Shown in pieces: positions 5,801-52,801 of a DNA stretch of 64,000 bases (position 1 is the first letter of the stretch; every line of letters begins with the position of its first letter). The DNA lies in NCBI GenBank assembly GCA_965233125.1, contig CBDDRQ010000030.1, positions 16,419 to 80,418 of the forward strand. Direction: 5' to 3'. The notes below the pieces were generated by a model. It saw only the letters and a program-made list of their open reading frames with translations, was not told the origin of the DNA and did not search any database. The stretch comes from an uncultured bacterium (lineage in GTDB: Bacteria; Pseudomonadota; Gammaproteobacteria; Burkholderiales; SG8-39). A program made the position numbers and the translations under genes.

Positions 5801-5805
5801 AGGGC
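5791..5805. repeat. attL-like direct repeat GTCCCCATTTAGGGC
   Basis: The identical 15-mer recurs at 52787-52801, next to the integrase gene. The composition change begins nearby. Confidence 0.75.
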
Positions 5806-11912: not shown

Positions 11913-11956
11913 CTCAGAATCCTCTGCGCGAAATAGATCTCGCACGTCTATCGGCT

Positions 11957-24220: not shown

Positions 24221-24223
24221 GGC

Positions 24224-29459: not shown

Positions 29460-29475
29460 TCCCTTCCCCGCCTAT

Positions 29476-29748: not shown

Positions 29749-29758
29749 GGCGACCCGT

Positions 29759-30784: not shown

Positions 30785-30868
30785 GGCCTCACCCAGTTCG
30801 TTGGCAACTGACGCTTCCGTCGCTTCCGGGTAAGACGAGTCGGGCCTTGGCGTTTATTACAACCCGAC

Positions 30869-32206
30869 CTACTTATTGTTCTGCCCCCTATCAGCAAGGT
30901 ATGCGTCCAGGGACGCGCGGGCGCTCACCAAGGGACCGCGTCGTACTGGCGCAAGGCGGGTACGGAGGTCTTGAAGCACATCGAGACCGAGCCGGTCGAG
31001 CAGTGTGTTGTCCAGGGTCGGAAAGTCCTGCTGATAAAAGAATATCGGCCGCGTCTTGTCCCGCGCTGCCGCCTTTAATTGCTCCTCGGGACTGAGAGTC
31101 CTGAACTGCGCCAACACTTCTTCCCTGTTTTTTTCGTTCGCAGCGCGGTGGACCTTACGCTCCTCAGTTTCCCTGCTCCGCTTTTCCTTCAATGCTGCGT
31201 CTTCCGCGGTCCTAATGCGTGCGCGCCTTGCTCGGGGTGATTCCTCCCTGATGTCCAAGCGTATTTCCCAAGGCTCCGATTCACCAATCCTTATCGTAAG
31301 CCGCTCGCACGCCGGCGCCACCTCGAGCGAAATATTGCCGTGCGCGTCGGTTCTTCCGCTATGGAGCACCGATCCTGTCTCATCGAGCTCCTGAAGTTCG
31401 ACATCGCTGGCCGGACGGGCGTGAATCATGTCGACAGCGCTAAGGTCGAGGTGGAGCCGACCCTGACTAAGCCTGGAAGAAGCTCTCAAAAGGACATCTC
31501 CGGCACGTATGTTTCCAGGATCGACCGATAGTCGCGCAAGGGAACGCTTCGCGGCCGCGGGCACGGACAACGCGGCAAACAGAGATTTCGCGTCACGTGC
31601 AGGCGCCGACTCCGAAGCTGAACCTAAGGGGCGAAGATCGGCGTAAAAGGCAAGGTCTTTCGATGGCGATTCGTATGCAGGTCCACTTGATTCAGCCACT
31701 GTCCCCATGCGCAATAGGTCCCTCAATGTTTCGCCCTGTTGTTCCAAATCGCCCTTGCGCGGGCGGAATGCCGCCGTTACCGAATCGAACGCCTTCTGCA
31801 GAACAAGCGCACCGAGGCTGCGCTTCGGCAGCATACGTGGACCTGTCTTCGCGATGCGTTCGAGCAAGACCTTCGAGGGTGACAGTTGCTCGTGCACATG
31901 AAGGAACTTTGCGAAGCATTGATCGCATCGTTGCAGATGTTCGTGCGCAGCGAAGAAGGCATTGGGGTCCGCATCAGCACCTTCGTAAGCAGATGCGTGG
32001 TAGCGGTCAATGGCGCTATCGGGAAGGTGCGGCCGTTGCGCCACCCCTCCTTTTTGCATCAACTGGCTTAGGATCAACGAATCGGCGAGCTGCAGTTTGC
32101 ATTGAGAGCACTCCGCAACGTGAACCATCAGAGAAAAGTGCGCCCTCCGTCCACGCCGGATCGACGCGAGCTCGGCCGGGCTGATGTGTTCGGCGCGAAA
32201 GCCCAT
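30869..32206 (-). CDS. putative cytoplasmic zinc-binding anti-sigma factor-like protein
   Basis: Two H-x3-C-x2-C (ZAS) motifs, HVAECSQC and HLQRCDQC, lie in the first ~110 aa. No obvious transmembrane helix. Sits 57 nt downstream of the ECF sigma gene. Confidence 0.5.
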   Translation of the reverse strand: MGFRAEHISPAELASIRRGRRAHFSLMVHVAECSQCKLQLADSLILSQLMQKGGVAQRPHLPDSAIDRYHASAYEGADADPNAFFAAHEHLQRCDQCFAKFLHVHEQLSPSKVLLERIAKTGPRMLPKRSLGALVLQKAFDSVTAAFRPRKGDLEQQGETLRDLLRMGTVAESSGPAYESPSKDLAFYADLRPLGSASESAPARDAKSLFAALSVPAAAKRSLARLSVDPGNIRAGDVLLRASSRLSQGRLHLDLSAVDMIHARPASDVELQELDETGSVLHSGRTDAHGNISLEVAPACERLTIRIGESEPWEIRLDIREESPRARRARIRTAEDAALKEKRSRETEERKVHRAANEKNREEVLAQFRTLSPEEQLKAAARDKTRPIFFYQQDFPTLDNTLLDRLGLDVLQDLRTRLAPVRRGPLVSARASLDAYLADRGQNNK

Positions 32207-32263
32207 GTTCTAGGACCTAAACGTAGGTAGACGGGTCATGGGCGGGCTTTATTACAGGGGGTT

Positions 32264-32848
32264 TCACAGATACTCCATTAAGGCCGGATAAGCCTGGCGG
32301 ATGACCACCGCCAGTCGTTGGCGTGCCCGCAGGACCCGCACGCCGACGTTATTTACCGTGATGTCCAGGCGCCCTGCCGCCTCGGCATAGGTCAATCCGT
32401 CAAGGTCCACAAGTCGGAGTATGTCTTGGTCGGCGGGGGCCAGGCGACTCATCGCCTCGCTCATCATTCGCCGCTGCTCGGCCAGCAACGCTGCGGCGTC
32501 CGGTCCCGGATTGGGGTCGGGGACAAAAACCTCCTCGTCCTCACCTTCGCCATCGATGGTGACGTGGTCCTCGGGCCGGCGGGCGCGCAGGGCGTCGATT
32601 GCGGCATGCCTGGTCATTCGCCTCAGGTAGGCGGCCAAGCTGCCACCCTGCCAGGCTCGAAGCGCACGCTGGTTGTTCTCTAGGAGGCGTTGAAAGACGA
32701 CCTGGGCCAGGTCGTCGGCATCCTCCCTGGAAAGCTGCCTGAACCGCCTGAGCGCGGCGTAAATGACGGTGCCGTAACGGTGGACAAATTCGTTGAACGC
32801 CGCCTCGTCTCCATCGAGGATCCGCTCAACGAGTTCCCCTTCCCCCAT
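32264..32848 (-). CDS. ECF-type RNA polymerase sigma-70 family factor
   Basis: Region 2 (FNEFVHRYGTVIYAALRRF...DADDLAQVVFQRLLEN) and region 4 HTH (LDGLTYAEAAGRLDITVNNVGVRVLRARQRL). 194 aa. Confidence 0.85.
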   Translation of the reverse strand: MGEGELVERILDGDEAAFNEFVHRYGTVIYAALRRFRQLSREDADDLAQVVFQRLLENNQRALRAWQGGSLAAYLRRMTRHAAIDALRARRPEDHVTIDGEGEDEEVFVPDPNPGPDAAALLAEQRRMMSEAMSRLAPADQDILRLVDLDGLTYAEAAGRLDITVNNVGVRVLRARQRLAVVIRQAYPALMEYL

Positions 32849-34198: not shown

Positions 34199-34864
34199 TT
34201 GAGTCGCGCAAACGCTCCGCAAATTGACGGGTCTTATGCGCTCTCCTCGATGGGGGAGCGGGAGCGCCGGCGAGCCGATCTGTACCTGCCACATATGGGG
34301 CCGCTCACCGCGTTCGTGGAAGCGATCAGGGTGGAAAGCGGCTTCGGTACCAAAGTACCACTCTTCGATCCGCGCGACGGCGGCACTGACGCGCAGGCCC
34401 TGTTCTTGTTGGAGGCTCCAGGACCGAAGGCAGTGAAAAGTGGCTTCATATCCCGCGACAACCCTGACCCGTCCGCACAGAACTTTCGTGCTCTTCTAGC
34501 GGACGCTGGAATCCCACGCGAGGCAACGGTGCTGTGGAACATCGTGCCCTGGTACATCGGTACAGGAGTGAAAATTCGGGCCGCGACGAGTCGAGACATC
34601 GAAGCTGGCATCACTTACCTACCGCGTCTGCTGGCGCTGTTACCCGCGATGCGCGCGGTCGTGCTCGTTGGCCGCAAGGCGCAGAAGGCGCACGATGCCG
34701 TTTCCCGCCTTACCGGAGCACGCTTGTTCCGCACGCTGCACCCGAGCAATCAGGTCGTGAGCTGCTGGCCGGAGAGGCTGAAGGAACTCCAGGCAGACCT
34801 ATTGGCTTTGAGTAGCTATCTCGCTTCGCTGCCTGCGTTGCCCTCGGCGGTGGTCCGAGCGTAG
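34199..34864 (+). CDS. uracil-DNA glycosylase superfamily protein
   Basis: Motif-A-like LFLLEAPGP and motif-B-like LHPSNQ at the expected spacing. The track start is TTG, and an ATG alternative lies at 34250. Confidence 0.55.
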   Translation: MSRANAPQIDGSYALSSMGERERRRADLYLPHMGPLTAFVEAIRVESGFGTKVPLFDPRDGGTDAQALFLLEAPGPKAVKSGFISRDNPDPSAQNFRALLADAGIPREATVLWNIVPWYIGTGVKIRAATSRDIEAGITYLPRLLALLPAMRAVVLVGRKAQKAHDAVSRLTGARLFRTLHPSNQVVSCWPERLKELQADLLALSSYLASLPALPSAVVRA

Positions 34865-34912: not shown

Positions 34913-36025
34913 ATGGCGCAGCAATTCACACGAACTGCCCTTTACGAACTGGTTTGGTCTCAGCCATTGCGTACGCTAGCAAAAAGCATTGGCGTTTCCG
35001 ATGTGGCAATCGCTAAGAGGTGCCGGGAGGCGAATATTCCACTACCGGGCATCGGCTACTGGGCGAAGAAAGAGGCCGGCAAGAAGGTGTTGCAGGTGAA
35101 TTTGCCGCCGCGCGCACTAGGTCAATCTGACACAGTTAAGTTCGGCAGACGGCACTATTACGAGCGCGGTCCAGCGGACGCAGAGCTGATTGACATGGTG
35201 CTACCCCCGCCGCCGTCGTTCGAGGAAAGCATGGAGGAGGTAAGGGCTCGAGCTCAGGCAATCGCGGTCAAGGTGCGGGCTTCGTCACTTGGCCGGCTGC
35301 ATCCAGCAGCCGCAAAGCTCCTCGAGCAGGATGAAGTTAGGCGAAAGAAGTATGCAGAGTACAAGTCATCCTGGTACGCGCCGATCTTTGACCAGCCACA
35401 CGAGAAGCGTCGGCTCCGGGTTCTGAACAGCATTCTCAACGCGCTCGCTTCAATAGGATGTACGTGTTCGGCGAACGCTAAGGATGGCTACGAGCTTCAC
35501 GTGGTCGTCGGCGACCAACGGCTGAGCTCGTCGCTGGCGCCCAAAGGATTCGACCGCCAAAGGCATTCCCCGGGGAACCTTGCACCAAACAACGGCAAGC
35601 TAATACTGCAGATCCAGTGGTACTGGCCGGCGGAGACAACGACATCGTGGTCGGACGTAGACAGGCCCTTGGAGAAACGCCTTCCCGAGATAGTTACGGG
35701 CCTGTTGGTGGCTGCGGAGTGGGGTTACAGGGAAGGCCTAATGCGAGCGCACAGCTACCTGGTGGAGCGCAAGGCTGAGGCTATTGAGAAGCGGAATCGG
35801 CAGATTGAGGAGGCCGCGCGCCAGGAACGCGAGCGGATAGAACGTGAAGCTAAGAAGCGGTTTGAAGCTCTGCTGTCGGACGTAAGGGCGTGGCGTACTG
35901 CCACAGAGATCCGGGCGTATGTTGAAGTCAGGATGGCTAGCACGCCGCGGGACCAGGGGCTAAACGAGTGGGCTGCTTGGGCGCTAGCGGAGGCTCAACG
36001 GATAGATCCGCTGCAGCGGGCCTGA
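34913..36025 (+). CDS. hypothetical protein (370 aa) with an N-terminal HTH-like segment and a C-terminal coiled coil
   Basis: TALYELVWSQPLRTLAKSIGVSDVAIAKRCREANIPLPGIGYWAKK is a recurrent conserved N-terminus of uncharacterised proteobacterial proteins. The C-terminus is E/R-rich and helical. Confidence 0.55.
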   Translation: MAQQFTRTALYELVWSQPLRTLAKSIGVSDVAIAKRCREANIPLPGIGYWAKKEAGKKVLQVNLPPRALGQSDTVKFGRRHYYERGPADAELIDMVLPPPPSFEESMEEVRARAQAIAVKVRASSLGRLHPAAAKLLEQDEVRRKKYAEYKSSWYAPIFDQPHEKRRLRVLNSILNALASIGCTCSANAKDGYELHVVVGDQRLSSSLAPKGFDRQRHSPGNLAPNNGKLILQIQWYWPAETTTSWSDVDRPLEKRLPEIVTGLLVAAEWGYREGLMRAHSYLVERKAEAIEKRNRQIEEAARQERERIEREAKKRFEALLSDVRAWRTATEIRAYVEVRMASTPRDQGLNEWAAWALAEAQRIDPLQRA

Positions 36026-36238: not shown

Positions 36239-36745
36239 TCAAGCTGCCCGCAGCGCGATCGCCAGCTGCGGCTGTCGCCGCCGCTTGGGACTCCCGGCAA
36301 GCAGCTCGCGGCGGACTTCCATCAGCAGCTTTCCAAGCATGTTCTTGCCGACGCCGTTGACCTCGCCCCAAAGGCGGTTCACGGGACTATCTGTAGTTGC
36401 GGACTCCACTAGGCGGGCGTCGCCTGTGGCAAGGAGGATTTCTCGAAGATCGGAGTGTTGGGAAAACTTGGCTACTAGCACGCCTCGCATCCGCGCAAAT
36501 TTTCTGGTTGACCAACCAGGAGTTACGTCCCAGTAATAAAGGCCGTGCGCCGCCATAGCAAGGAGTGAAGGCGAGGGTGCGGCCATGAGCCAATCGCGCA
36601 CCGCATCCTTCCGTGCCTTTCCGGCTTGGTATGCGTGCTCCGCTGTGGGGTATGCAACCGATTCGAAAAGGATCTCTCGGCGGTAGAGGTTGCTGAACAC
36701 TCCGTAGGGCTTTTCGCTTGCACGGTAGAAGCGGATTTCGTCCAT
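36239..36745 (-). CDS. NADAR (YbiA/DUF1768) family protein
   Basis: FSNLY...FESVAYPTAEHAYQAGK and NRLWGEVNGVGKNMLGKLLMEVR match NADAR signatures. ATG at 36745 is preceded by GGAG. Confidence 0.75.
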   Translation of the reverse strand: MDEIRFYRASEKPYGVFSNLYRREILFESVAYPTAEHAYQAGKARKDAVRDWLMAAPSPSLLAMAAHGLYYWDVTPGWSTRKFARMRGVLVAKFSQHSDLREILLATGDARLVESATTDSPVNRLWGEVNGVGKNMLGKLLMEVRRELLAGSPKRRRQPQLAIALRAA

Positions 36746-36804
36746 GGCGACCGGGGCTCCATATTGCATTGCAGTTAGTATATACTGCGTTGCACATAAT
36801 GCAA
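36746..36804. promoter_or_regulatory. divergent promoter/operator region between the NADAR and HTH genes
   Basis: The minus strand reads TTGCAT-N16-TATACT, a near-consensus sigma-70 promoter upstream of the NADAR gene. A 10-bp palindrome AGTATATACT lies at 36777-36786. There are four TTGCA/TGCAA half-sites at 36764, 36769, 36790 and 36800; the last pair forms an inverted repeat over the HTH gene ATG. Confidence 0.4.
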
Positions 36805-37200
36805 CCACAAGTCACTAAACGGCGCGGGCGCCCCAAGGCAGAGACCAAGGGGGCGAAGGAGGCTATTGCAGCGATCGAGCGCAGGATGGAAGAGAAGAAG
36901 CTCTCGCGCGCAGGGCTAGCGCTGGTCCTGCAGATGAATCCGTCGAGCGTGACACGAGCCCTTAGTCAAGGGGACTCACCAGGGTGGACGCCGTCGCTTA
37001 AGCGCATTTATGGCGTTGCAATAAAGGGGAAAGGCGCGGTCGCAAAGGCGCCGCGGGGCCGAGAAGAGGCAACCCTGCAACGCCTACTGGAGACGCCGCC
37101 TGCGGCTGCAGGCGCCGTGAGGGCGATCCTGAACGATGTCCAGAGGCTGGTAGAGGCGCTCTCCGTCCCGCAGCGAGCAGTGAAACAGAAGCGCCGCTAA
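36799..37200 (+). CDS. putative HTH DNA-binding regulator (133 aa)
   Basis: Segment LSRAGLALVLQMNPSSVTRALSQ resembles an XRE/Cro-type HTH. Basic N-terminus. Divergent from the NADAR gene. Confidence 0.45.
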   Translation: MQPQVTKRRGRPKAETKGAKEAIAAIERRMEEKKLSRAGLALVLQMNPSSVTRALSQGDSPGWTPSLKRIYGVAIKGKGAVAKAPRGREEATLQRLLETPPAAAGAVRAILNDVQRLVEALSVPQRAVKQKRR

Positions 37201-38252
37201 CGACCCGAGCCTCGTCGCACAGGGCGACAGTCCGGACGGCCGCAGAGTCCCTCTTCTGGCAGAGGCAGCGGCGCGGGTTGATGGGGCAGCGCGCTATGGG
37301 CTTGCAGCGAAAACTCGTGCTCGTACATGCCTCCGCGGGCACCCACGAACCCGCAAGCCCAAGAGGCGAGAGTTTGACCGGCTCGCAACGCGTTGGCTAT
37401 CTGGTCATCGGTGACCAATCGAGTGCTCTGATCTTCCTCAACAAGCGCGGAAAGAAAACCAGCGGTACACCAGTCACCGGCGCCACACGTGTCCACCAAC
37501 CGCGCGGCTGGAACTGCGTCCATCTGTCGCCAAGAAGAACTCGCATGGTGGCCTCGAAAGCGCAGTCCCTTCTCGCCTGCCGTCTGTACCTCGATAAAGG
37601 ATAGGCGGCTTCGCAAGGTGTGCTCGAAATCTCCCGGCGAAAAACGATCGACCGAATACTTAAGAACGTCGACCATGGGCAGTGCCTCTGACCAGTATTG
37701 TGAGTCCGATGGAGTCGACGGCTCGTACATGACCAGGACGTCTAAGCCTCGAGCCAACTGCATCAGCTTCAAGGTGCTGGACGATAAGCGATCGACGAAG
37801 AGGACGTCAGGCGTCACGGCACCGAAGCTCTCCTTAGGTAGCCCTTCGTGTCGCTCGCGAAAAAGAAGCTCACCGCAAGCCGGGCACTCGGCAGGGAAGG
37901 AGTGGGTCAGGCGATTTCCGTTCGCGCCTACCACCTGTTGCAGAAAAATGGGAGTTCTAGCCTGCTCAATCGCAAGAAGGTACTCACAATTCACCCCAAT
38001 GCGCTCCAAATCGGCCAACACGCGAGCCCCTGCGACGTCGCGGCCAACAAATCCAATGGCGCTCGAATTCCAGCCCAGGTAGCACAGGATCGCCAGCACG
38101 TTCCCGCAGGTGCCACCGGCATAGACCGCGGCCTCTATGCGTGCGAGGTCACCGGTGACGACATCGAGCGCAATGAGGCCGGCGCCGACTACGGTGGGCT
38201 TCTTCTTGGTGGAAGTTTCCCCTGGGTTGGCGGACTCTTGCTTCGCGACCAT
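37197..38252 (-). CDS. PfkB (ribokinase-like) family sugar/nucleoside kinase
   Basis: N-terminal GAGLIALDVV...YAGGTCGNVLA and the C-terminal catalytic motif VDTCGAGDWCTAGF (DTxGAGD). The ATG at 38252 shares 1 nt with the upstream TAA. Confidence 0.8.
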   Translation of the reverse strand: MVAKQESANPGETSTKKKPTVVGAGLIALDVVTGDLARIEAAVYAGGTCGNVLAILCYLGWNSSAIGFVGRDVAGARVLADLERIGVNCEYLLAIEQARTPIFLQQVVGANGNRLTHSFPAECPACGELLFRERHEGLPKESFGAVTPDVLFVDRLSSSTLKLMQLARGLDVLVMYEPSTPSDSQYWSEALPMVDVLKYSVDRFSPGDFEHTLRSRLSFIEVQTAGEKGLRFRGHHASSSWRQMDAVPAARLVDTCGAGDWCTAGFLSALVEEDQSTRLVTDDQIANALRAGQTLASWACGFVGARGGMYEHEFSLQAHSALPHQPAPLPLPEEGLCGRPDCRPVRRGSGR

Positions 38253-39322
38253 TATCTGTAGGGATCCCCAGTGAGCCACAGATGCATGGGATAGGCACCC
38301 TTACTATAGCTGGCTGCTAGGCTTTCCGCGTTCGCGATGTATCGAAGCGTCTCCAGATAAACAACCGGGAAGTCGCGCTCCATCGCAGCCATAAGAGCCC
38401 CGATCGCGGCACACTTGCTACCGATAGGTGAGAGGACAATAAGCGAGCCACCATGCGCTGCATAGACCCTATCGCGGGCGTCCGCAAGGCGAAGGAGCGT
38501 TCGATATAGGTCGAGCGGCTCTTCCTCCGCTGTATAGATATAGTTGCGGGGATCGACCTCCCACGTGCTCGCCAGCTCAGTCATGAACTCCTCAATAAGG
38601 ACATCTCCGCGGCGTGGACCCTTCGACGGAAAGGGCAGGACGGGACATGTCTCGGGGCCCTCGAGGAAGTCGAAGATCCGTCGCAGCGCCTCTTTCTTAC
38701 CTGTGACCAGTTGAGGCACCCAGAGCTTCGCGGCATCGGCCGAATCGGAAAGTGAGGCCCTACCGCCGAAGCCGGGCACATAGATGGCGTGATCGGCGTG
38801 CTCGGAGACGATTCGCTCGTCGAGGACCGGATCGGACATCACGAAAAGGTGGATGTTCCAGGGTGTATCGGCGTTATCAGCGCTGTGGACTAGTGAGCGA
38901 ACCAGCGGAAAGCTCATCCCGATCGAAAGCGCGCTCATGTCAACGGCGATATCTGTGAAATCGCTCAGGTTCTTGAACACTTCGGCGACGAGTTTGCGCC
39001 CGCCCACGACCGCTCCGTCTTCGGGATCGAAGACGTCGATCGTGAGCACGATGCTGTCTGGAAAGTTGTCTTTCAACACATCTTCATTGTCTTCTGCGCT
39101 CTGTTTGAGCGTTTCGGCTGGGTTTGCACGCTCTTCTCTAATAAAGATCGCGCGCCTCGGCACACCTGTAGCAGCCAGCCGTTGTGCCACGACGCTCGAG
39201 CGTGGGTCGAAGCCGGCGGCCGCAATTAGCAGCACCTTTCGGGCAGCGCCGAAGTAGGCCTGCATGAACTGAGCCGTAATGTCTTCCGGATGGAAGATGC
39301 ACCGTTCCCAGCGCGCCTTCAT
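38252..39322 (-). CDS. hypothetical protein (356 aa), alpha/beta-looking, no motif recognised
   Basis: ATG at 39322 overlaps the ATPase stop (ATGA). Rossmann-like opening KVLLIAAAGFDPRS. Fourth gene of the five-gene operon. Confidence 0.6.
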   Translation of the reverse strand: MKARWERCIFHPEDITAQFMQAYFGAARKVLLIAAAGFDPRSSVVAQRLAATGVPRRAIFIREERANPAETLKQSAEDNEDVLKDNFPDSIVLTIDVFDPEDGAVVGGRKLVAEVFKNLSDFTDIAVDMSALSIGMSFPLVRSLVHSADNADTPWNIHLFVMSDPVLDERIVSEHADHAIYVPGFGGRASLSDSADAAKLWVPQLVTGKKEALRRIFDFLEGPETCPVLPFPSKGPRRGDVLIEEFMTELASTWEVDPRNYIYTAEEEPLDLYRTLLRLADARDRVYAAHGGSLIVLSPIGSKCAAIGALMAAMERDFPVVYLETLRYIANAESLAASYSKGAYPMHLWLTGDPYR

Positions 39323-41250
39323 GTCTTCGACGGCTCGATGGCAGACAGCAGATCGGAAAGGCGACGTTCGAGGAAGCCGCCACGGCCCAATGTGAGCCCC
39401 CGCGCCAGCGAATAGGTTCCTGTGAGTTCGATAAGCGTCCAGACCTTCTTCTTCGTCCCGTAGTCGCGAATGATCCCGAAGATGTTGTAGGCCGTCCCGT
39501 ACTGGAGAATTCGGGCGAGGTCCCGGTTCGAATTCGGAATCTGATCGAACTCGTCCTGTGGGATCCCCCAGGCATTGGCGCCATGGCCCAAGGAGGCGTT
39601 CGGCTCCATGCTCTTTTCCAGGCATTGGGCAGCGACATGGTCAGCAAGCTTCAGCACTCGCGTGCGCTCAGGAAAGTCCTCTTCTTTGAGGATGCGATTT
39701 GCCCGCTCTTTTAGGAGCTTGCCTTGGATCGACGCCGACACGCGTGTCGTCCCGTCGCGGATTAACTGCGCTTCCAATTGCGTGACGAGTGGACTTGCCA
39801 GATGCAAGAAGCGCTCGGCGTTTTCGGAAGCCGCGTCGCAAAGGGCCTCGAACCCGTAGAACATCGGTCGGTCGTGCTGGTGGTACAGCTGAAGGCGTGC
39901 GCCGAGTTCGACATCCCGGCTCGCGCTGAGCGGGTTGTTGGGCTCTGGATCGCGCTCCTCGCCGAACAGGGCGCCCTGGGGTACGCGCCTCAGATAGCGT
40001 TCTAGCAGGATTCGCTCCATGGCGGCCCGCAGGTCGGGCGTATCGACGCGCTTGATCCTAGCGCTTTCACTAGCGAAGTATTGGTCCACGGCCCCGCTGA
40101 TTTCGCGCCGGCGTTCTTGGCCGATCTGCAGCCGCTGTGTCGTTGCAATGGAATCTGTCAGAGCGCGCAGCTTGCCGCTAGGAAGCTGGGGCGGATCGGT
40201 TTCCAGGAGCTGTTCGAGATTGGTAAAATGCCTTCGCGCGAACACGGGCATCTGGGCCAAATATCGACGAGCCATGTCCGAGGCGATGCGCCGGAAGTCT
40301 AGACGTGCACGCTTACGGTCGGTATCGGTGTGGCCTTGCATCCAGATCACGGCCGTTTCGCGCCGGATATCAAGCCCCGGGGAATCGCTCATGACGCCAT
40401 TGTCAGGTCTGAGGACTTCGTGCGGCCGCAAGGCGTCGAGCCGCATAAGGATCCAGCGGCCGATGCGTAGCTCACGACGCGCAAGCCAGCGCACCAGTGC
40501 CTCCAGCTGCCGCGGATGCAGGATATTGGCGTCATCGCAGATGAGCAGGGGCCTTAACCGGATCTTGTCCTCCACACCCGGGATTTCAAAGGCCTCAATT
40601 ACATCGAAGGGGTTGTAGGCGGCCGTCGCTGCCTGCGGCAAGCGATCGGCGGGCGGCGGGGAGAGGCTTGCCGTCACGGCATAGGTTTCGCGCTCGACTC
40701 CCTTTGCGACCTCCCGCACCTTTTCAAGCTCTGTCCCGCCGATGGCCTCCAGTGCAGCCGCGGCATCCACACGTGGAACCAGCGTTATCCGGTGGAGTGC
40801 GAATCCCGCCTGCTCGAATCCACGGAGCCAAGCCAGTACAGTGCGTGATTGGATGAGTGAAAAGAGCAGTTTGTTCTTCACATCGTCGCTGTACGGCAAG
40901 TCCCAACACCCGCGGTACCCCGACTCCATCGGTATTCGGCAACCGGCGACCGCTGGTTTTGAACCATCGACCAAAGCGCCACATTTCGTAAGAGCATCGG
41001 TGAGCGAAGCGTGCTGATCCAGCGATTCCGTCTTGACGAGTGTCGTGAGCGTAGGAAACGTAAAAAGCCGAGCAAGGGTGGTCTTGCCGCTTCCTGGAGC
41101 GCCAATAAGCAGTACGAGACGCTCCAACAGGCTCTTGGTCTTGGCGTAACTCTCGAGGAACGTGAGAAGCGGCTCCGGCGTCACGTACGGAAGGAACGCC
41201 AAGTCGTCGCGGATGTATTCGGAGGCGCGCTTTTCGAACGGATTCATCAC
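39319..41250 (-). CDS. P-loop NTPase (643 aa)
   Basis: Walker A LLIGAPGSGKTTLA and Walker B-like LLICDDANIL. Large C-terminal helical region. Confidence 0.75.
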   Translation of the reverse strand: MMNPFEKRASEYIRDDLAFLPYVTPEPLLTFLESYAKTKSLLERLVLLIGAPGSGKTTLARLFTFPTLTTLVKTESLDQHASLTDALTKCGALVDGSKPAVAGCRIPMESGYRGCWDLPYSDDVKNKLLFSLIQSRTVLAWLRGFEQAGFALHRITLVPRVDAAAALEAIGGTELEKVREVAKGVERETYAVTASLSPPPADRLPQAATAAYNPFDVIEAFEIPGVEDKIRLRPLLICDDANILHPRQLEALVRWLARRELRIGRWILMRLDALRPHEVLRPDNGVMSDSPGLDIRRETAVIWMQGHTDTDRKRARLDFRRIASDMARRYLAQMPVFARRHFTNLEQLLETDPPQLPSGKLRALTDSIATTQRLQIGQERRREISGAVDQYFASESARIKRVDTPDLRAAMERILLERYLRRVPQGALFGEERDPEPNNPLSASRDVELGARLQLYHQHDRPMFYGFEALCDAASENAERFLHLASPLVTQLEAQLIRDGTTRVSASIQGKLLKERANRILKEEDFPERTRVLKLADHVAAQCLEKSMEPNASLGHGANAWGIPQDEFDQIPNSNRDLARILQYGTAYNIFGIIRDYGTKKKVWTLIELTGTYSLARGLTLGRGGFLERRLSDLLSAIEPSKT

Positions 41251-41256
41251 ACGAGG

Positions 41257-42378
41257 TTAGCTGTGCCGCTGCCGTCGACGAAAGAGCGGTCGCATTTCGG
41301 GATGCAGAACACCCTCCACGAGTTTGGCCTCGGCCTCCGCCCAGAGGATAGCAAGCGAGTTATTGGGCGTGTTGTGATCGAGCACGAGCGGAAGGGCGCA
41401 GCCCGCATAGCCCAACCCCAAGTGCTTCACACCCCCCTTGTCGGTGTGGGGAGTCTGGATTGAGGCATTGTAATAACGCTGAGTAAGCGCCACGATAGCC
41501 GCATCGGCCGGGCGATTAGGATCGATCCCATCGCTCGCCGGGATGATCGCGCCGAAGCTTATCTCGGGAGACTCGAGTTTCAATTTCGATCGCGCTTTCT
41601 CGATCGTACTCGGAGCTGAAAAGCTTGCGTTCTCCGTTGCGAGGTAGTGGTGCACACAAAGCTTCCAGTCGGCGCCGACAACGTCCACTCCGTCTTCCTT
41701 GGCCGCTGCGAGTGAAACGAGAAATCGGCAGAGCTTGCCGGTCCAACGATCCTTGTCTGCATCCCAACGCAGGAACGAACTGCCGGAACCCATGAAGTCG
41801 TCGACGAGATAGATCACATCAAAAGTTGCCGTAGGGCCGGCTACCTTTTGAAGGTCGGAGAGCAGATCTGCCCACTTGTAGGAATCAACCTGCGTCTGGA
41901 CCACGAACTGCTCGTTCGTGAGGATGCCCACGGTCGAATGTCGCAAGATGTCGATTCGTGCGCCATCGCTAAGCCCCATGATAAGGGTTCGGCGGCGGAG
42001 GGCGTCGAGCTTCTCGCGCAACTCCGGAACGGCTTGAACCTTGTAGTGAGGCACGCCTTCCCGTGCCGCGACTAATCCGATCAAATAGCGCTCCATGCGC
42101 GTCGGGAAGAAGAGCTCCACGAGTCGCATCATTTCTGCAGGGCCCACGTAGATGAGCCTCTCGCGCAGCAGCGCATACGCTGTTTCCCGATGGACCGGAT
42201 CAAACTGCTGCAACCACGCCGCGAGGCTTTCGAGAAAACGCATCCCTGCCAGAAAGTCCCGATATCCGTCGTACTTGACGCTCGCCATCATCCGAAGCCA
42301 TGCGAACTCGTGGGAAGCCCGCTCGGCTTCCCACGACATGACTTGGCTCAAGATTCGGAGTGCGCGCGTATATTCCAC
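41257..42378 (-). CDS. phosphoribosyltransferase (PRTase)-like protein
   Basis: PRPP-loop-like motif FDVIYLVDDFMGSGSSF (hydrophobic strand, DD, then a small-residue loop). N-terminal helical extension. Confidence 0.6.
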   Translation of the reverse strand: MEYTRALRILSQVMSWEAERASHEFAWLRMMASVKYDGYRDFLAGMRFLESLAAWLQQFDPVHRETAYALLRERLIYVGPAEMMRLVELFFPTRMERYLIGLVAAREGVPHYKVQAVPELREKLDALRRRTLIMGLSDGARIDILRHSTVGILTNEQFVVQTQVDSYKWADLLSDLQKVAGPTATFDVIYLVDDFMGSGSSFLRWDADKDRWTGKLCRFLVSLAAAKEDGVDVVGADWKLCVHHYLATENASFSAPSTIEKARSKLKLESPEISFGAIIPASDGIDPNRPADAAIVALTQRYYNASIQTPHTDKGGVKHLGLGYAGCALPLVLDHNTPNNSLAILWAEAEAKLVEGVLHPEMRPLFRRRQRHS

Positions 42379-42381
42379 GGC

Positions 42382-44307
42382 TTAGCCGAGCGGCAACTGG
42401 ACCCGTCCCTCGCGCACGGCCTTCAGATACCACACCGTGCCGGCGGCGCCGACAAGACCCGCGGGCAGCAGATTCCAGCAGGTGCGGAGGTCGGGCGAGA
42501 CGTCATCAACGCTCAAGGAACTCGGCAGTGCAAGCAGTTCGGAATCGTTGCCAGGCCAACGTCCCCGGTCGCCGATCTTGATGCAATCGCCAGCGGCGCG
42601 CTCCTGGAGATTCGAGACGACGGCTACTTTCGTCACATCGAGCGGCAGGATGTCAAGCGAATGGCTCGAATGCACTGCCTTGACGTCGTGATGCCCCGCA
42701 CGTGCCAAGATCTCAGCCACCCTGAACCACAAGTCCCGCTCGCGCAAGTCCACATGGCGAGCTTCTACCGTGATTTGAGTCGGCCGCAGCTCCCGTCTCC
42801 AGTGCCCGACTTCTGGGTCGGCCTTCAATGTGGCCTCGACCCGCTCGAGCGCTGGCCGCAATGGCCCCTCGCTCATGCCGTCGGGGGATTCTGCAAGCGT
42901 TCGTATCACCCCAGCGTTGTAATAGCCAATTAGCACTCTAGATCGAAGTGCTTCGGGGATGCAGCCGACTAGGGACTTGTGCACAGATTTCCCACGGCCG
43001 GTTGCGATTCCCACGTCGATTCCTTCTTCGAGGAGGCGCACGAGCTCCTTAGCCACTGCTTCCGATACCGGGCCGAAGCGATCACGAGTATTGACTAACG
43101 TGCCATCAAAATCGAGAACGATCGAACGAACATTCAGGCGGCCGAGTTCGGCGAGGAAACCTTCCAAAGCGCTCTCGTAGGAGGTCAGCCGACCTTCCCG
43201 TTTCAAGCGGCTCCGCGATCGGCTGGACTTGATTTCCACAGCACGGCGACGCCGTTCTCGCCCGACAGTGAGTCCTTTAGGTCCTAGCCCATAGAGGTGC
43301 GATCCCCAGTCAGGGACGCCGGGACGGCCGGGATTGCGGCCAATCACTTCCGCAGCCGCGGACGCTAGCTCCATCGAGGCGATGACGCCGTCCATGACGG
43401 CGGCACATGGCTCCGTATCAAAGCCCCAATGATGTACAGCCACGTCGGCCGGCAGGAGCGCCATGGTGGTCTCAGCCAACTCGCGGCTTTCGTTTGTGGA
43501 TAGCACTAGCACAACGGATCGTGCGGCGCGCTTGGCAAGCCAGACATGGCGGCCATGCGCAAAATTGCGAAGGTCACTCACCTGGACATTACCCAGCGCC
43601 GATTCTGAAAATCGCGATTCGATGTCGATGGCAACCGGCTTCTGTGCAGCATCGTGGATCACGATCAATGTCTTCGAATCGAGCGAGGCGGCGAAGCTCA
43701 AGTCCATGCGCCCAGTGGCCTGGGCGGCTTCCATTGGTTCGCCGAAGAGGCGTCCGAGTAACACCATGAAGGCGACCAAGGAATTGGTGGCGAGGAAGCC
43801 ATCCTTGCCACTAGGCACCGAGAACTCCATCAATGTCGCACTCGCATGATCGCGGGCTCGGGACGCAAGAGGGGAATCTCGCTGCGCGCACATCACGAAC
43901 ACGTGGGTCGCATGCCGATCGAGGGCTGCCTCCCAAGCAGCGAGAATATCCGGATTGGAGCCTCCGGCGCTGAGAAGCCAGACATCCGAGTCTTTGAGCG
44001 TTTCTAGTGCCAGGAATTCCAATGGCGTGCGGACGGCAGCCGGGCGTCCATGGCGACGCTGGTATAGCTCCGTCGCGAAATGCGCGGCCGCAAGTGATCC
44101 TCCCGAGGCAACGACGATTGCGGGGGCGGAGCTGGAGCGCTTCGTTGCCTCAATCCAGCGGGCGATATCCAGCGAGGCAGCCCAAGCTCGCGTCGCGCTC
44201 AAGTGCGCGAGCTCATCCCGGTAGTCACGCCCCATGCGAGAGGACTCTACATGCGGGCGGAAGGCCAAGTCCAACGGAGTCCCCTGCCACGGAGCGAGTC
44301 TGGGCAA
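42382..44307 (-). CDS. fusion protein: N-terminal SIS (sugar isomerase/sugar-phosphate binding) domains plus a C-terminal HAD-IIB (Cof-like) phosphatase
   Basis: SIS-like IVVASGGSLAAAHFA ... DVWLLSAGGSNPDIL. HAD motif I IVLDFDGTLV, motif II GIATGRG, motif IV GDRGRWPGNDSELL. The track start is TTG, and an ATG alternative lies at 44235. Confidence 0.65.
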   Translation of the reverse strand: MPRLAPWQGTPLDLAFRPHVESSRMGRDYRDELAHLSATRAWAASLDIARWIEATKRSSSAPAIVVASGGSLAAAHFATELYQRRHGRPAAVRTPLEFLALETLKDSDVWLLSAGGSNPDILAAWEAALDRHATHVFVMCAQRDSPLASRARDHASATLMEFSVPSGKDGFLATNSLVAFMVLLGRLFGEPMEAAQATGRMDLSFAASLDSKTLIVIHDAAQKPVAIDIESRFSESALGNVQVSDLRNFAHGRHVWLAKRAARSVVLVLSTNESRELAETTMALLPADVAVHHWGFDTEPCAAVMDGVIASMELASAAAEVIGRNPGRPGVPDWGSHLYGLGPKGLTVGRERRRRAVEIKSSRSRSRLKREGRLTSYESALEGFLAELGRLNVRSIVLDFDGTLVNTRDRFGPVSEAVAKELVRLLEEGIDVGIATGRGKSVHKSLVGCIPEALRSRVLIGYYNAGVIRTLAESPDGMSEGPLRPALERVEATLKADPEVGHWRRELRPTQITVEARHVDLRERDLWFRVAEILARAGHHDVKAVHSSHSLDILPLDVTKVAVVSNLQERAAGDCIKIGDRGRWPGNDSELLALPSSLSVDDVSPDLRTCWNLLPAGLVGAAGTVWYLKAVREGRVQLPLG

Positions 44308-45832: not shown

Positions 45833-48800
45833 TCAGACGAGCCTCTGTCTCAGCGGGTACAGGTTGCCTTTTTGCGCCTCTTTGACCCGGTACCCACGCC
45901 GCTGCAGCGCTTGTGAGAACGCCTTCTGCGTGTCCGGCGACTCATCCTCTTCGCGCTCGCGACACCACGCCCGGAACGCGTCGAACAGCACCCCCGCAGG
46001 CGTGCCTTGCCGCTCCTCGCAGCGCTCGTAGTCTTCGAGCCACTGCCCGAGCAAGTCCTGCTCGCGGAAGTAATCACGCGTGCGAGCCACGATCTCGGGC
46101 GGCGGCTGCAGCCCTTCCTTCGCGTACAGGACCGCACCCTCCACGCTCCAGACGAGGATGCCTTCCTCCTCGGCCTTCAGCTTCTCCGCCAGTTCCTTAT
46201 CGCCGTCGGGGAGCGCGGGGTTGTACTCGGTGGTGGCGGGCCGGTTCCACTGGCGGTCGAACGGCATCAGGTGCAGGCGCCCGCGAATGGCGTCATCTAA
46301 GTGCTCGATCCGGGGCTGGGAGTTCGTTGGCAGCAGCAGCTTGTGCGTGATATCGAAGGTGATGTTGTTCTCGCGCATCAACCGGCCCGTCAGCTTGTTG
46401 TCCCCGGTGTGGCGCTTCACAATCTCCGGGTCCAGACGCTGGCCGGGCTTTGACTCGCTCGAAATTGCCAATCTCGCGCCGGCCAACGAGGCCGTCGTGG
46501 GCGTCGGGCGCTCGGCATCGACGTCGAAGCGCGTCACCATCAGCGCAGCGGGCGGTATGTTGACGACGTAGTCACCACCAATCGACTGGAACCGGTCGAT
46601 TGCAGCATTCTTGCCATTGGACCCGTAGCCGATGGCGAAGAACATAAGGTGCTCGCGCGTCACGCCGGTGAGGCAGTACCCAAACATGCGCTGCACGTAC
46701 ACGGCTAGCTGCGGGCGCTTCCTGTATCGGCCGACGCTCGCCGGGTCGAGTTTGCCATTGCGGTCGTACTCTACTGGGGTCGGGGAGCCCGTCACCTCGT
46801 CGATGAACAGCACCCAGCGCGGACACTTCGCCGTTGGTCTGTAGGCCACCGAGCAGCGCTTCGTCACGAAGTCATCGCGCCCCTCGGGCCGCAACGTGCC
46901 GGTGCGCAAGTCCACCACGCCGTTCTGGACGCCGAGCAGCCAAGGATCGCGGTCCAGTTCCGTGGCCGAGATGGCGATGCCCTTGGCCTTGCTCAGAAAG
47001 TCGAGCATCGCCGACACTGCCTTGCGGCTGCGGCAGTTGTGCGCCCACGCCATCAGCTCTTTGGCGCTCTTCTTGATTTTCTTGTTGGTGCCCTCGTCGT
47101 TGGCGTTCTGCGCGCTGATCTTCCGCGCTTTGTCCTTGTAGTACCGCGACACGCGCAGCGCCTGCCGATGAGCGTGTGCGCTCCCGACGTCGACGAGCCA
47201 CTTCTCACCATTCCAGAAAATCCACTCCTTGCGTTCGAGCACGTAACGGAGGTTTCCTTTGGTGATCGAGCGCAGCAGGTTGGCGTTGCCGGCGTCGGTC
47301 CAGTCTGTAGTTGTGTCGTCGAAGTCGGTGTCCGGCACAGGCTCTGGCTTGGGCGCCGGCATCGGCATCTCGATGCCGAGCTTCCTGACGCGCTCGACCA
47401 GCGCCGCGGTTTCCTTTTCGGCGAGCCCGGCGGCGGCGATCTTCTCCCGCGCCGCTTGTGGTCCGCTGACCAGCGCCTCGTCCGCGATCTCGGCTTCGAT
47501 CTCCGCGTCGAGGTCCGCGAACTCGTCCAGCACCGACTTCCGCGCGAGCTCGTAGCGCAGGCCGCCGTGGGCGTGCGAGTAGATGTATGGGCGCCCGCCC
47601 TGCAGGTTCGCGTACGCGATGCGCCCGTCGCCGCGGTACCCGGGCTCGATGGGGTCAGCGAAGTGCTTGCCGTGCCATGTGCCAGGATCGTCGAGGACTT
47701 CCCCGACCGTGACCACCACGCCGTCTTTCGACACAAGCTGGAACTCGGCGGTCAGCTCCTGCCCCTCGGTCGCCGCGCGCGCGATCTCTCTTGCACGCTC
47801 GGGGGCGACGCCGCGCTTCGCCAGCCGGGCAACATGCTGCTCCACCCAGGCCTGGCTCACGCGCTCAGCTTCCTCGCCGCGAAGCGCGCGGGCGGTGCGG
47901 CGTAGGTCTTCGACGTCTTTGTGCTCTTGCGGCGTGAGGTCCGCAATCCGGCGCGTGTCGAACAGCACATTGGGATCGCCCCAGATGCGCGGCTCGGGGC
48001 GGCGCTGCTCCAGCGGCGGGACGCACATCGCGCCCGCGGCGAAGTCCAAGCGCTCGGGCTGCCCGACGCTCGCGTCGATGATGTTGCGATCCAGCAGTCG
48101 GCCGCTGCCGGACACGATGAAGCATCCGAACCCGGCGAGCCACAAGCGCTCGTAGATCACCGCCAGCACGCGCGGGATGTCGCGGCCGTCGACCACCGGG
48201 ATGTAGATGCGCTGGCCGCGCAGCGGGATCACCACCTCATCCTCGTCGGCGTTCACGATGTAACTGGAGGAACTGGCGGTCCACATCATGGGTGCGTGCG
48301 CGAGCTCGGGCTCCGCCTTGAGCAGCACGGCGCGCAGCGTCTCGGGGGTGTAGATACCTTCGACGTGCTCGGCATCGTGGTCCAGCATCAGGATGGCGGG
48401 CCCGGCGGGCCACGAGAAGTTCTCGTTCGTGCGGGCCAGCGACCCGGGGTACGCGGCCTGCTCGTCCTTGGTGACCAGCGACACCGACTTTTTGGTCGTG
48501 ATGCCGTACGCGAGTGCCTGCTTGTGCGTCAGGCTCGCCAGGAGCTCCGTGAGCCCTTCGAGCCCGTCGACCTTGATGCGATCCGCGCGGCCGCGCTTAA
48601 GGAAGGCCCGCGTCGACTTGGTGAGCTTGCCGTCCTTCAGCCAGAACTTTTTAGCGAGCAAGCCACTATCGTTCGTGATGCGCGTGACGGTGAAGGGCTG
48701 CGACTCGTCCACGGGCTCGGCCGGCTTGCGCTCGGTCGGCTTGGGCCCTGTGGCTAGTCCTGCGGGCGTCTGGGCGACGGGCGACGACGGGCCGACCGGC

Positions 48801-48985
48801 AGCGAGGCCGCCAGCGCGCGCATCTCAGGCGTCTCGACAACGGGGTAGGTGGCCCTCCCCCAGACAAAGCTTCCCGTGACGTGCGCCGCACCGTTGCCGG
48901 TGGACTTCTTAGGGGCAGGTGGTACAGGAGCGGTGAGCTTCTTGAGCTTTTCCTGCCGCCGCCGGTTGATGCCGTCGAAGCTCAT
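45833..48985 (-). CDS. primase-helicase (AEP-like N-terminal region plus P4/D5-family SF3 helicase)
   Basis: ILMLDHD (DxD-like) in the N-terminal half. P4-family C-terminal Walker A FFAIGYGSNGKNA and the downstream ...LMPFDRQW... region. 1050 aa. Confidence 0.75.
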   Translation of the reverse strand: MSFDGINRRRQEKLKKLTAPVPPAPKKSTGNGAAHVTGSFVWGRATYPVVETPEMRALAASLPVGPSSPVAQTPAGLATGPKPTERKPAEPVDESQPFTVTRITNDSGLLAKKFWLKDGKLTKSTRAFLKRGRADRIKVDGLEGLTELLASLTHKQALAYGITTKKSVSLVTKDEQAAYPGSLARTNENFSWPAGPAILMLDHDAEHVEGIYTPETLRAVLLKAEPELAHAPMMWTASSSSYIVNADEDEVVIPLRGQRIYIPVVDGRDIPRVLAVIYERLWLAGFGCFIVSGSGRLLDRNIIDASVGQPERLDFAAGAMCVPPLEQRRPEPRIWGDPNVLFDTRRIADLTPQEHKDVEDLRRTARALRGEEAERVSQAWVEQHVARLAKRGVAPERAREIARAATEGQELTAEFQLVSKDGVVVTVGEVLDDPGTWHGKHFADPIEPGYRGDGRIAYANLQGGRPYIYSHAHGGLRYELARKSVLDEFADLDAEIEAEIADEALVSGPQAAREKIAAAGLAEKETAALVERVRKLGIEMPMPAPKPEPVPDTDFDDTTTDWTDAGNANLLRSITKGNLRYVLERKEWIFWNGEKWLVDVGSAHAHRQALRVSRYYKDKARKISAQNANDEGTNKKIKKSAKELMAWAHNCRSRKAVSAMLDFLSKAKGIAISATELDRDPWLLGVQNGVVDLRTGTLRPEGRDDFVTKRCSVAYRPTAKCPRWVLFIDEVTGSPTPVEYDRNGKLDPASVGRYRKRPQLAVYVQRMFGYCLTGVTREHLMFFAIGYGSNGKNAAIDRFQSIGGDYVVNIPPAALMVTRFDVDAERPTPTTASLAGARLAISSESKPGQRLDPEIVKRHTGDNKLTGRLMRENNITFDITHKLLLPTNSQPRIEHLDDAIRGRLHLMPFDRQWNRPATTEYNPALPDGDKELAEKLKAEEEGILVWSVEGAVLYAKEGLQPPPEIVARTRDYFREQDLLGQWLEDYERCEERQGTPAGVLFDAFRAWCREREEDESPDTQKAFSQALQRRGYRVKEAQKGNLYPLRQRLV

Positions 48986-50963: not shown

Positions 50964-51335
50964 CTACACTTCGAGGTTGTCGACCACCCTGTTGGCCTTG
51001 AGCACGCGCGGTGACTTCTTCGCGTAATTGTATTGGCGCAGGAGCGCCTCATACCTAGTGCGCCTGTAGAGCGGCGTCGCGCGGACCACCGCGACCGCCG
51101 TGCGCTCGTTGCAGTGCTTGCGCTCGATCACGACGCGCACGTCCAGCCAGAGCCACATCAACTCCACGTGGGTCCAGCGCTTACGCCGACCGAGGGGCTT
51201 CTTCGGTCGGCGCTGCTTGAGCAGCAGCGCCGTGTTGGCTTCCAGCAGCGCCGTGATCCGCGCCGTGTTGGCTTCCAGCAGCGCCGTGACGGCTTCGATG
51301 GCCTTGATCGCCGCAGCTTCCCTCGCGGTTCTCAC
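50964..51335 (-). CDS. hypothetical protein (123 aa) with an internal 11-aa duplication
   Basis: GTG start overlaps the integrase stop (GTGA). Contains TALLEANTARI/TALLEANTALL, encoded by a 33-bp tandem repeat. Confidence 0.45.
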   Translation of the reverse strand: MRTAREAAAIKAIEAVTALLEANTARITALLEANTALLLKQRRPKKPLGRRKRWTHVELMWLWLDVRVVIERKHCNERTAVAVVRATPLYRRTRYEALLRQYNYAKKSPRVLKANRVVDNLEV

Positions 51336-52786: not shown

Positions 52787-52801
52787 GTCCCCATTTAGGG
52801 C
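52787..52801. repeat. attR-like direct repeat GTCCCCATTTAGGGC
   Basis: Identical to 5791-5805. Preceded by an AT-rich stretch. Ends 1 nt before the ATG at 52802. Confidence 0.75.

Follow-up and report, generated by a model that had tools for sequence, protein, structure and literature searches.

A widespread mobile gene cassette pairing a retron-type phosphoribosyltransferase with sugar-phosphate enzymes and a triple-CARF protein, a candidate for an uncharacterized conflict system

Here we describe a compact gene cassette in a 64,000-nucleotide stretch of DNA from an uncultured bacterium of the Burkholderiales (lineage SG8-39; assembly GCA_965233125.1, contig CBDDRQ010000030.1, positions 16,419 to 80,418), referred to below as the window. 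Five closely packed genes, all on the minus strand and lettered A to E, make up its body. Gene A (longest open reading frame (ORF) 42382-44307, 641 amino acids) encodes a fusion of a double-SIS domain with a HAD-IIB domain; gene B (41257-42378, 373 amino acids), a phosphoribosyltransferase (PRTase)-like protein of the kind known as the effector of type III-A retrons; gene C (39319-41250, 643 amino acids), an AAA+ ATPase of the ORC/Cdc6-like kind whose Walker A and Walker B motifs are intact; gene D (38252-39322, 356 amino acids), a stand-alone protein of three Rossmann-like (CARF-like) domains; and gene E (longest ORF 37197-38279, 360 amino acids), a kinase of the PfkB family. The unit probably extends to a YbiA-like NADAR gene, also on the minus strand (36239-36808; Pfam NADAR, E value 4.5e-27), as a sixth, optional component.

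The start of gene A probably lies at M25 (window position 44235, giving 42382-44235 and 617 amino acids), because the homologues of A begin there. In a public collection the protein was found only as a 482-amino-acid form (P0122), which matches 75% of the ORF at 100% identity; the start of A in the source annotation thus seems to be set too far downstream, with loss of the first SIS motif. Gene E starts with the ATG at 38252, which lies inside the TAATG overlap of D and E and yields 351 amino acids (37197-38252). The stop codon TAA of A is separated from the GTG of B by GCC, a gap of 3 nucleotides, and the TAA of B from the GTG of C by CCTCGT, a gap of 6 nucleotides; C and D overlap in ATGA. 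The original prediction, a first reading of this sequence in which the five genes were taken for one operon, had the ORFs and all four junctions exactly as we find them. At other loci, A and B overlap by 4 nucleotides in 57 of 61 cases, B and C are 7-13 nucleotides apart, the junction of C and D stands at +1, -1 or -4, and that of D and E at -4 in 44 of about 67 cases. Order, strand and junctions are conserved at other loci, and the arrangement is far beyond chance. A scan for promoters and terminators around it returned signals no better than those in shuffled sequence.

A genome scan with one genome per species yielded 118 relatives of D, and 80 loci were kept. The five-gene set recurs at all 80, across about 10 phyla, and is complete wherever the contig is long enough to show it. 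At 77 loci the genes run A-B-C-D-E; the other three, from Bryobacterales/Solibacter, have E-A-B-C-D. Mean column identity is 53-68% for all five protein families. Hosts include Alpha- and Gammaproteobacteria, Acidobacteriota, Planctomycetota, Chloroflexota and Actinomycetota as well as Spirochaetia, Binatia, Rhodothermales, Poribacteria and Entotheonella. The original prediction was to be given up if the genes failed to occur together outside this genome; the set was found together at every locus examined. More distant homologues of D on plasmids (26-33% identity) are accompanied by rearranged cassette genes: B-C-D-A-E on Paenarthrobacter pTC2, A-E-B-C-D on a Bradyrhizobium plasmid, A-E-NADAR-B-C-D with a helix-turn-helix (HTH) gene beside NADAR in Sphingomonas, A-B-C-D-E with a convergent NADAR gene in Paraburkholderia, and NADAR-A-B-C-D without the kinase on Burkholderia gladioli bgla_2p and Rhizobium lentis p2.

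From a metagenome scan that started from the NADAR-A-B-C-D clade, 80 loci were obtained, 54 of them with enough upstream DNA to be informative. NADAR-A-B-C-D is present in all of the latter (54/54) and the PfkB gene in none (0/54). In the proteins of this second clade, none of the catalytic motifs of A to D has been lost. The cassette thus occurs in two conserved forms, A-B-C-D-PfkB (type 1) and NADAR-A-B-C-D (type 2), and the window carries type 1 with NADAR alongside. The invariant core is A together with B-C-D, which are contiguous in every arrangement seen, rearranged plasmid versions included; a fifth activity is supplied by a PfkB kinase or else by a YbiA-like N-glycosidase. No conserved sixth flanking gene was found in type 1, where the commonest flanking family, a resolvase, occurs at 7 of 79 loci.

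Four loci depart from this regularity. At L062, L067 and L080 the match to B or C stops partway, with about 2-3.4 kb of extra DNA before the next cassette gene; at L037 the match to B or C also stops partway, and the extra DNA amounts to about 1.1 kb, about one C-terminal half. These look like insertions (possibly insertion sequence (IS) elements) or decayed copies. A gene annotated as nucleoside 2-deoxyribosyltransferase lies within a few kilobases of the cassette on an Agrobacterium plasmid (L081, 16950-17510) and on a Sphingomonas plasmid (L088, 212-1087), which could be coincidence or point to a further partner in nucleotide metabolism.

The NADAR gene of the window lies on the same strand as the cassette, 388 nucleotides downstream of E, and the closest solved structure to its product is E. 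coli YbiA (E value 8e-20). NADAR, a constant part of type 2, is met only now and then in type 1, where it was seen in the window and at 1 of the 80 genome loci. The window protein is 68-77% identical to the cassette-linked NADARs of loci L066, L082, L085, L086 and L088, whereas D is only 27-47% identical between the window and the same loci. This disparity, its fixation in type 2 and its position adjoining or inside related cassettes all speak for NADAR as a component of the cassette and not the separate neighbor for which it was originally taken. YbiA is reportedly an N-glycosidase in riboflavin biosynthesis. YbiA-like NADARs have been described as antitoxins that reverse N-glycosidic ADP-ribosylation, and E. 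coli ybiA adjoins the PRTase-like gene ybiB (PMC11125620). In the window, the space between NADAR and E holds a small HTH-like ORF on the plus strand (36799-37200, about 133 amino acids), convergent with E. It was rejected as a component for having no homologue at any other locus; the HTH gene annotated in the matching place beside NADAR on the Sphingomonas plasmid is not detectably homologous to it.

The SIS, HAD, Walker and PfkB motifs quoted in the original prediction were all found, and they occupy invariant columns in alignments of the homologues, from which the invariant positions given below are taken. For A, the AlphaFold model (predicted local distance difference test (pLDDT) score 90.8) indicates that the N-terminal domain is a double-SIS phosphosugar ketol-isomerase/deaminase of the GlmS/NagB-II/FrlB type. 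A Foldseek search of the PDB with the model returned for this half NagB-II, the isomerase domain of GlmS and AgaS-like proteins (E values 1e-12 to 1e-10, template modeling score (TM) on the target ~0.7), and an archaeal glucosamine-6-phosphate deaminase is also among the matches of the model. SGGS (68-71) and SAGGSN (113-118) are invariant. In the first SIS subdomain SGGS, SAGGSN and GKDGFLATNS align with CGTS, SQSGET and VASTK of GlmS, with the phosphate-binding motifs kept. In an ungapped alignment of 32 residues made by eye, the catalytic GlmS residues K485, E488 and H504 correspond to K/R232, E235 and H251 of A, and E235 and H251 are invariant among the homologues. The SIS assignment is made because of the Foldseek matches of the model and this motif-level alignment: the sequence of the SIS half has diverged too far to match Pfam SIS or an NCBIfam equivalog, a comparison of the A profile with E. 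coli GlmS by hhalign was not significant, and a sequence-profile search of the PDB with A matched the HAD half only.

The C-terminal half of A matches Pfam Hydrolase_3 and TIGR01484 (HAD-IIB, Cof-type), HAD-IIB structures in the sequence-profile search of the PDB, and trehalose-6-phosphate phosphatase and phosphomannomutase-like proteins by Foldseek. HAD motifs I-IV are invariant (DxDGT 399-403, TGRG 436-439, K560 and GD...ND 579-588). Homologues of A carry the Joint Genome Institute (JGI) name 'FrlB-like / HAD'. GlmS, NagB-II and FrlB act on N-substituted sugar phosphates, which they isomerize or deglycate, and the partner of FrlB is the PfkB kinase FrlD.

Gene B scores 55.7 bits against Pfam PF24390 (PRTase-CE; cut-off 27) and matches the PADLOC PRTase_III-A models with an E value of 1e-15, aligned to positions 11-258 of the 368-position model. 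Its invariant residues are the acidic pair DD193-194 of the loop for phosphoribosyl pyrophosphate (PRPP) and G323-x14-P338 N339 N340; a sequence-profile search of the PDB with B returned no match. Gx14PNN is given as a hallmark of retron PRTase effectors in the report on Retron-Eco11, in which the PRTase depletes PRPP and causes abortive infection (PMC12746101). In the B family, the last P of the Gx14PNN(xP) motif is not conserved. By fold, motifs and relatedness, B is a PRTase-like protein of the retron type III-A effector kind, and its activity is predicted by analogy with Retron-Eco11 and ShosT.

Gene C scores 41.9 bits against Pfam PF24389 (ORC-CDC6-like; cut-off 27), and Walker A GxPGxGKTT (50-58) and Walker B DD (239-240) are invariant, so that C has both the AAA+ core with its Walker motifs and membership in the ORC-CDC6-like family. 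A sequence-profile search of the PDB found no solved relative of C, and a Pfam search no recognizable effector domain. For the PRTase-like protein and the P-loop ATPase of the original prediction, Pfam families thus exist already. The modest scores of B and C suggest that PRTase-CE and ORC-CDC6-like were built from related, not identical, proteins.

The product of gene D, originally described as unrecognizable, belongs to a cataloged family: it matches PADLOC PDLC01916 (CARF6--CARF_CARF_CARF) over its full length with an E value of 3e-101. The AlphaFold model (pLDDT 93.6) has three Rossmann-like units. By Foldseek, domain-level matches were obtained to the CARF proteins Can2, Card1, Crn1/Sso2081 and Cam1 (probability ~1, E values 1e-3 to 1e-4), with a TM of ~0.25 and no global match; generic Rossmann proteins score alike. 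A sequence-profile search of the PDB with D returned no match, and a protein look-up no record of the exact window sequence. Among 1.84 billion sequences, the family has 822 cluster representatives at E<=1e-3, nearly all of 350-390 amino acids or shorter fragments, and D forms a distinct family that is nearly always stand-alone.

Gene E belongs to Pfam PfkB (E value 1e-21) and has the conserved motifs GG (GGTCGN), EPS and DTxGAGD (DTCGAGD). It falls below every NCBIfam equivalog cut-off, with ribose-1-phosphate kinase, fructokinase and fructoselysine 6-kinase as the best partial matches. Two conserved pairs of cysteines in the E family, C-x2-C at about 123-126 (numbered from the ATG at 38252) and C-x4-C near the C terminus, suggest a zinc-binding insertion, which would be unusual for PfkB kinases.

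The original prediction likened the SIS, PfkB and HAD proteins to GmhA, HldE/HldA and GmhB of ADP-heptose synthesis. The likeness does not go beyond these broad classes, and all three roles were rejected. The pathway has a single SIS domain, a HAD of class IIIA and a locus for lipopolysaccharide (LPS); A, in contrast, is modeled as a double SIS of the GlmS type and has no GmhA match in Pfam or NCBIfam, its HAD domain matches class IIB models and reaches only 16 against a cut-off of 44.6 with the HAD-IIIA model, and E scores a negligible 22.3 bits against rfaE_dom_I (TIGR02198; cut-off 345).

In the window, the cassette lies inside a ~47-kb island of low GC content at third codon positions (GC3) that carries an integrase, near a DISARM operon. 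A 15-bp direct repeat, GTCCCCATTTAGGGC, brackets the island at 5791-5805 and 52787-52801, with ~0.002 such matches expected by chance; its right copy lies just upstream of the ATG that opens a high-GC3 ORF absent from the gene calls. The repeats at 5791 and 52787 are probably the attL and attR of an integrative element. A tyrosine integrase gene (51332-52582) and a D5_N primase-helicase gene (45833-48985) lie inside the right end of the island, and a tRNA search of the window found none. The mobile-island context first proposed, with DISARM, NADAR and a uracil-DNA glycosylase (UDG)-superfamily gene, is thus confirmed, the integrase and the D5_N primase included.

Elsewhere, we surveyed the 25 commonest families of 126 + 148 nearest neighbors of the cassette. 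Those of type 1 include integrases, resolvases, IS110, IS66 and Tn3 transposases, TrwC, T4CP, TrbL and TrbI as well as AbiEi, PARIS-like AAA_15/21 proteins, RtcR and ResIII helicases. A test of eight large type-1 neighbors identified three of them, as HmaC, type I HsdR and type III Res. Type-2 neighbors include HsdM, integrases, IS66, AbiJ, AbiEii, PIN and RadC; toxin-antitoxin genes are also among the nonconserved flanks. LPS, capsule or glycosyltransferase families do not figure among the commonest neighbors, and the placement of the cassette outside LPS, capsule and nucleotide-sugar loci has held up. No cas or CD-NTase family was found among the 25 commonest or in the part of the window that is annotated. 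The cassette was found on nineteen plasmids, of which nine are conjugative, and on one plasmid it sits between a coupling-protein gene and virB11. A phage database held no D homologue, and no phage or prophage record with the cassette was found. The cassette is self-contained, conserved, widespread, horizontally mobile and so far without a name.

As first surmised, no match of the set to a known defense system was found: none in PADLOC (2.0) covers it. Its parts are already cataloged (PADLOC CARF6, Pfam PRTase-CE and ORC-CDC6-like); a full-text literature search found no paper describing the whole, although an earlier computational mention may exist. Type III-A retrons come closest in B, with its PRTase_III-A match, acidic pair in the PRPP loop and clade-specific Gx14PNN, and in the pairing of this effector with a nucleic-acid-binding module, which in retrons is a winged-helix DNA-binding partner (PMC7736814). 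Unlike retrons, the cassette has an ORC/Cdc6-like ATPase and a triple CARF as regulators, three extra sugar-phosphate enzyme activities and NADAR, and B is without the C-terminal extension of the retron effector. Because the intergenic gaps are 3-13 nucleotides, there is no room for a noncoding RNA inside the cassette, an argument from spacing made without an msr/msd covariance search. Retron membership was rejected, since the PRTase agrees but there is no reverse transcriptase among the cassette genes.

A HAD-fold hydrolase that works with a PRTase in a defense context is also known from ShosTA/PsyrTA, in which ShosT combines a HAD-fold pyrophosphatase and a PRTase in one fused protein and its toxicity requires PRPP binding (PMC11961720, PMC12961424); the coupled HAD and PRTase genes of the cassette are a parallel to it. 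The HAD domain of the cassette differs, being of class IIB, fused to a double-SIS domain and separate from the PRTase, and there are five or six genes instead of two. With no PADLOC match to ShosT or ShosA and no gene for a DprA-like antitoxin, membership was rejected.

By its place in CARF6, and by the superposition of one of its domains on the CARF domains of Can2, Card1, Crn1 and Cam1, D resembles the CARF proteins of type III CRISPR-Cas systems (Csm6/Csx1, Can2, Card1, Crn1, Cam1); it differs in its three tandem domains, its lack of a fused effector and its unusually conserved polar residues, and the common neighbors of the cassette include neither Cas10 nor another oligoadenylate synthase. 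The combination of CARF with AAA+ recalls RtcR but is split over two genes here. Gene A shares the double SIS with GlmS-type Glu and His with FrlB, GlmS, NagB-II and AgaS, and type 1 shares the PfkB partner with FrlB/FrlD; unlike all of these, A is fused to HAD and set among PRTase, ATPase and CARF genes. Finally, as in DarT-NADAR and YarT-YbiA pairs and E. coli ybiB-ybiA, a YbiA-like NADAR goes together with an enzyme that forms, or in the case of B would form, N-ribosyl linkages, but the ribosyl donor of the cassette would be PRPP, not NAD+, and NADAR is optional in type 1. DarT-NADAR membership was rejected, as no ADP-ribosyltransferase is among the conserved partners A-B-C-D.

We tentatively favor the reading that the cassette is a mobile conflict system, most likely directed against phages or other mobile elements, in which a PRPP-consuming PRTase effector is combined with an ATPase/CARF switch, SIS-HAD processing and PfkB/NADAR salvage; we consider it plausible, if short of probable. 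By this reading, B, once switched on, would take the 5-phosphoribosyl group from PRPP and place it on a nitrogen acceptor, as suggested by Retron-Eco11 and ShosT, and PRPP would be drained and/or a harmful N-ribosyl adduct made. We assign the effector role to B because of its retron III-A PRTase signature, the PRPP depletion by Retron-Eco11 and the PRPP-dependent toxicity of ShosT. Because it is of the retron III-A effector type, B is a likelier effector than the NTPase, for which the original prediction had considered that role. C and D may together form the switch, with C sensing the invader or binding nucleic acid and D binding a nucleotide-like ligand. A, which is translationally coupled to B, would process the product of B on presumed substrates: its HAD domain could remove phosphate or pull the reaction forward, and its double-SIS domain could catalyze a ketol/Amadori-type isomerization, or the deglycation, of an N-linked sugar phosphate. 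The PfkB kinase or the YbiA-like NADAR, as alternative fifth components, might serve in salvage, reversal or detoxification of the N-ribosyl product and so act as a safety valve or reset.

Several points weigh against this reading. Toxins of the classical kinds, for instance nucleases, pore formers and NADases, are absent from the components. What ShosT uses as acceptor is not known (PMC11961720, PMC12961424), and the chemistry downstream of B is therefore conjecture; the four metabolic activities moreover exceed the needs of a PRPP drain and thus speak for a cassette that synthesizes a defined small molecule. The CARF label of D comes from the name of a hidden Markov model and from weak domain-level structural matches (TM ~0.25), and its many invariant charged residues would also fit an enzyme. 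The association with defense islands is a qualitative one, read from lists of neighbors; no phage or prophage record has the cassette, and the position of some copies beside relaxase and coupling-protein genes would suit anti-defense cargo equally.

A second-messenger system, one of the options of the original prediction and in our view an unlikely one, would have A, B and E (or NADAR) make a phosphoribosyl-derived molecule on infection, D sense it and C act as the effector, for example by loading onto invader DNA and blocking it. CARF domains serve as ligand sensors, D is CARF-like and stands alone, neither a cyclase nor Cas10 is among the common neighbors, the four enzyme activities all have intact catalytic motifs, and C and D are tightly coupled. 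Yet C is without a recognizable effector domain and the clade of B is known for its effectors; it is difficult to see how a kinase and an N-glycosidase could stand in for each other as steps of one biosynthetic route, and an immune signal made by a PRTase is without known precedent.

Distinctly improbable, in our estimate, is a PRPP-driven counterpart of DarT, in which the ORC/Cdc6-like ATPase would bring the PRTase to invader nucleic acid or the nucleotide pool and the PRTase would phosphoribosylate an exocyclic base amine. Double-SIS/HAD would then fix or trim the adduct by Amadori-type rearrangement and dephosphorylation, YbiA-like NADAR or PfkB-dependent deglycation would reverse it on self, and the triple CARF would gate the process.

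The absence of a toxin domain from the cassette could also be explained by the synthesis of an antiviral nucleotide or nucleoside analogue, with a logic like that of viperin: a sugar-modified nucleotide would poison phage polymerases and C and D would regulate its production. A sugar kinase, ketol isomerase, phosphatase and PRTase would suit the attachment of a base to a rearranged pentose phosphate. That the type-2 clade has an N-glycosidase instead of the kinase, that no pyrophosphokinase is present to activate the modified sugar, and that B resembles effector rather than salvage PRTases make this quite a remote prospect. We give equally little credence to counter-defense or fitness cargo of plasmids and integrative and conjugative elements (ICEs) that would bind, through CARF, and degrade nucleotide signals of host immunity or repair ribosyl adducts. 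The cassette is frequent on conjugative plasmids, beside genes for relaxase, coupling protein and type IV secretion; CARF-fold ring nucleases are among the structural matches of D; and NADAR, HAD and FrlB-type deglycases are all 'reversal' enzymes. Many copies, however, are chromosomal and lie beside restriction-modification and Abi genes, as defense systems do, and a PRTase of the toxic effector type and a large AAA+ ATPase would be unexpected in a signal-degrading module.

A catabolic, frlBD-like operon for an amino-sugar or Amadori (ketosamine) compound, carried as metabolic cargo, would account for the FrlD/FrlB-like pairing of PfkB with a double-SIS deglycase, the weak similarity of E to fructoselysine 6-kinase and the JGI label 'FrlB-like' on A homologues, but was rejected as very improbable, given that the pairing always comes with PRTase, AAA+ ATPase and CARF genes and with no conserved transporter or regulator, that NADAR replaces the kinase in a whole clade, that E scores 36.6 bits against an FrlD cut-off of 247, and that the flanks are mobile or defense genes.

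The cassette, with six genes in the window, is a strong and compact candidate for an uncharacterized conflict system. It would belong with the PRTase-effector conflict systems, and would be categorically new if sugar-phosphate chemistry proves central; as a defense system, it would be a widespread, multi-enzyme addition to the small group of PRTase-based immune systems. The acceptor of the ShosT and retron PRTases is still unsolved. For the products of such PRTases, chemical clues come from the extra conserved enzymes: an isomerase or deglycase of the GlmS/FrlB type, a phosphatase of the HAD class and, as alternatives, a PfkB kinase or a NADAR N-glycosidase. If the cassette is a defense system, a CARF-family protein would work without CRISPR or a known cyclase, and NADAR 'reversal' enzymes would be tied to PRPP-dependent instead of NAD+-dependent ribosylation. 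The DarT-counterpart reading, if true, would imply a new class of nucleic-acid or nucleotide modification in immunity, together with a new use of CARF outside CRISPR. Because the cassette is compact (~7-8 kb), self-contained and present on plasmids of culturable Rhizobium, Agrobacterium, Burkholderia and Sphingomonas, it is directly testable.

Several other genes of the island were noted. A UDG-superfamily gene (34199-34864) is followed on the plus strand by an ORF of 370 amino acids without a family match (34913-36025); no homologue of either was found adjoining the cassette at other loci. On the minus strand, a complete class 1 DISARM operon (14264-27526; PADLOC E values 1e-76 to 0) consists of DrmD (24224-27526), DrmMI (20237-24220), DrmA (16833-20240), DrmB (15043-16836) and DrmC (14264-15046), all assigned by PADLOC. 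DISARM was rejected as a home for the cassette, as it is separate and none of the five proteins matches a Drm model in PADLOC. On the plus strand at 10008-14053 lies a two-gene pair, of which the first product (634 amino acids) has weak ZacB and PDC-M27B (phospholipase D-like) matches and the second is a 698-amino-acid SNF2/ResIII helicase with ZacC, PDC-M27C and DrmD-like matches; the pair may be another defense module beside DISARM. Finally, an ARPP-1 domain gene (29759-30784; Pfam E value 4e-88) lies in a minus-strand group at 27591-32848, flanked by two ORFs with neither a Pfam nor a PADLOC match (27591-29459, 622 amino acids, and 30869-32206, 445 amino acids) and by a gene for an extracytoplasmic function (ECF) sigma factor (32264-32848). 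This group looks like another uncharacterized module of the conflict type.

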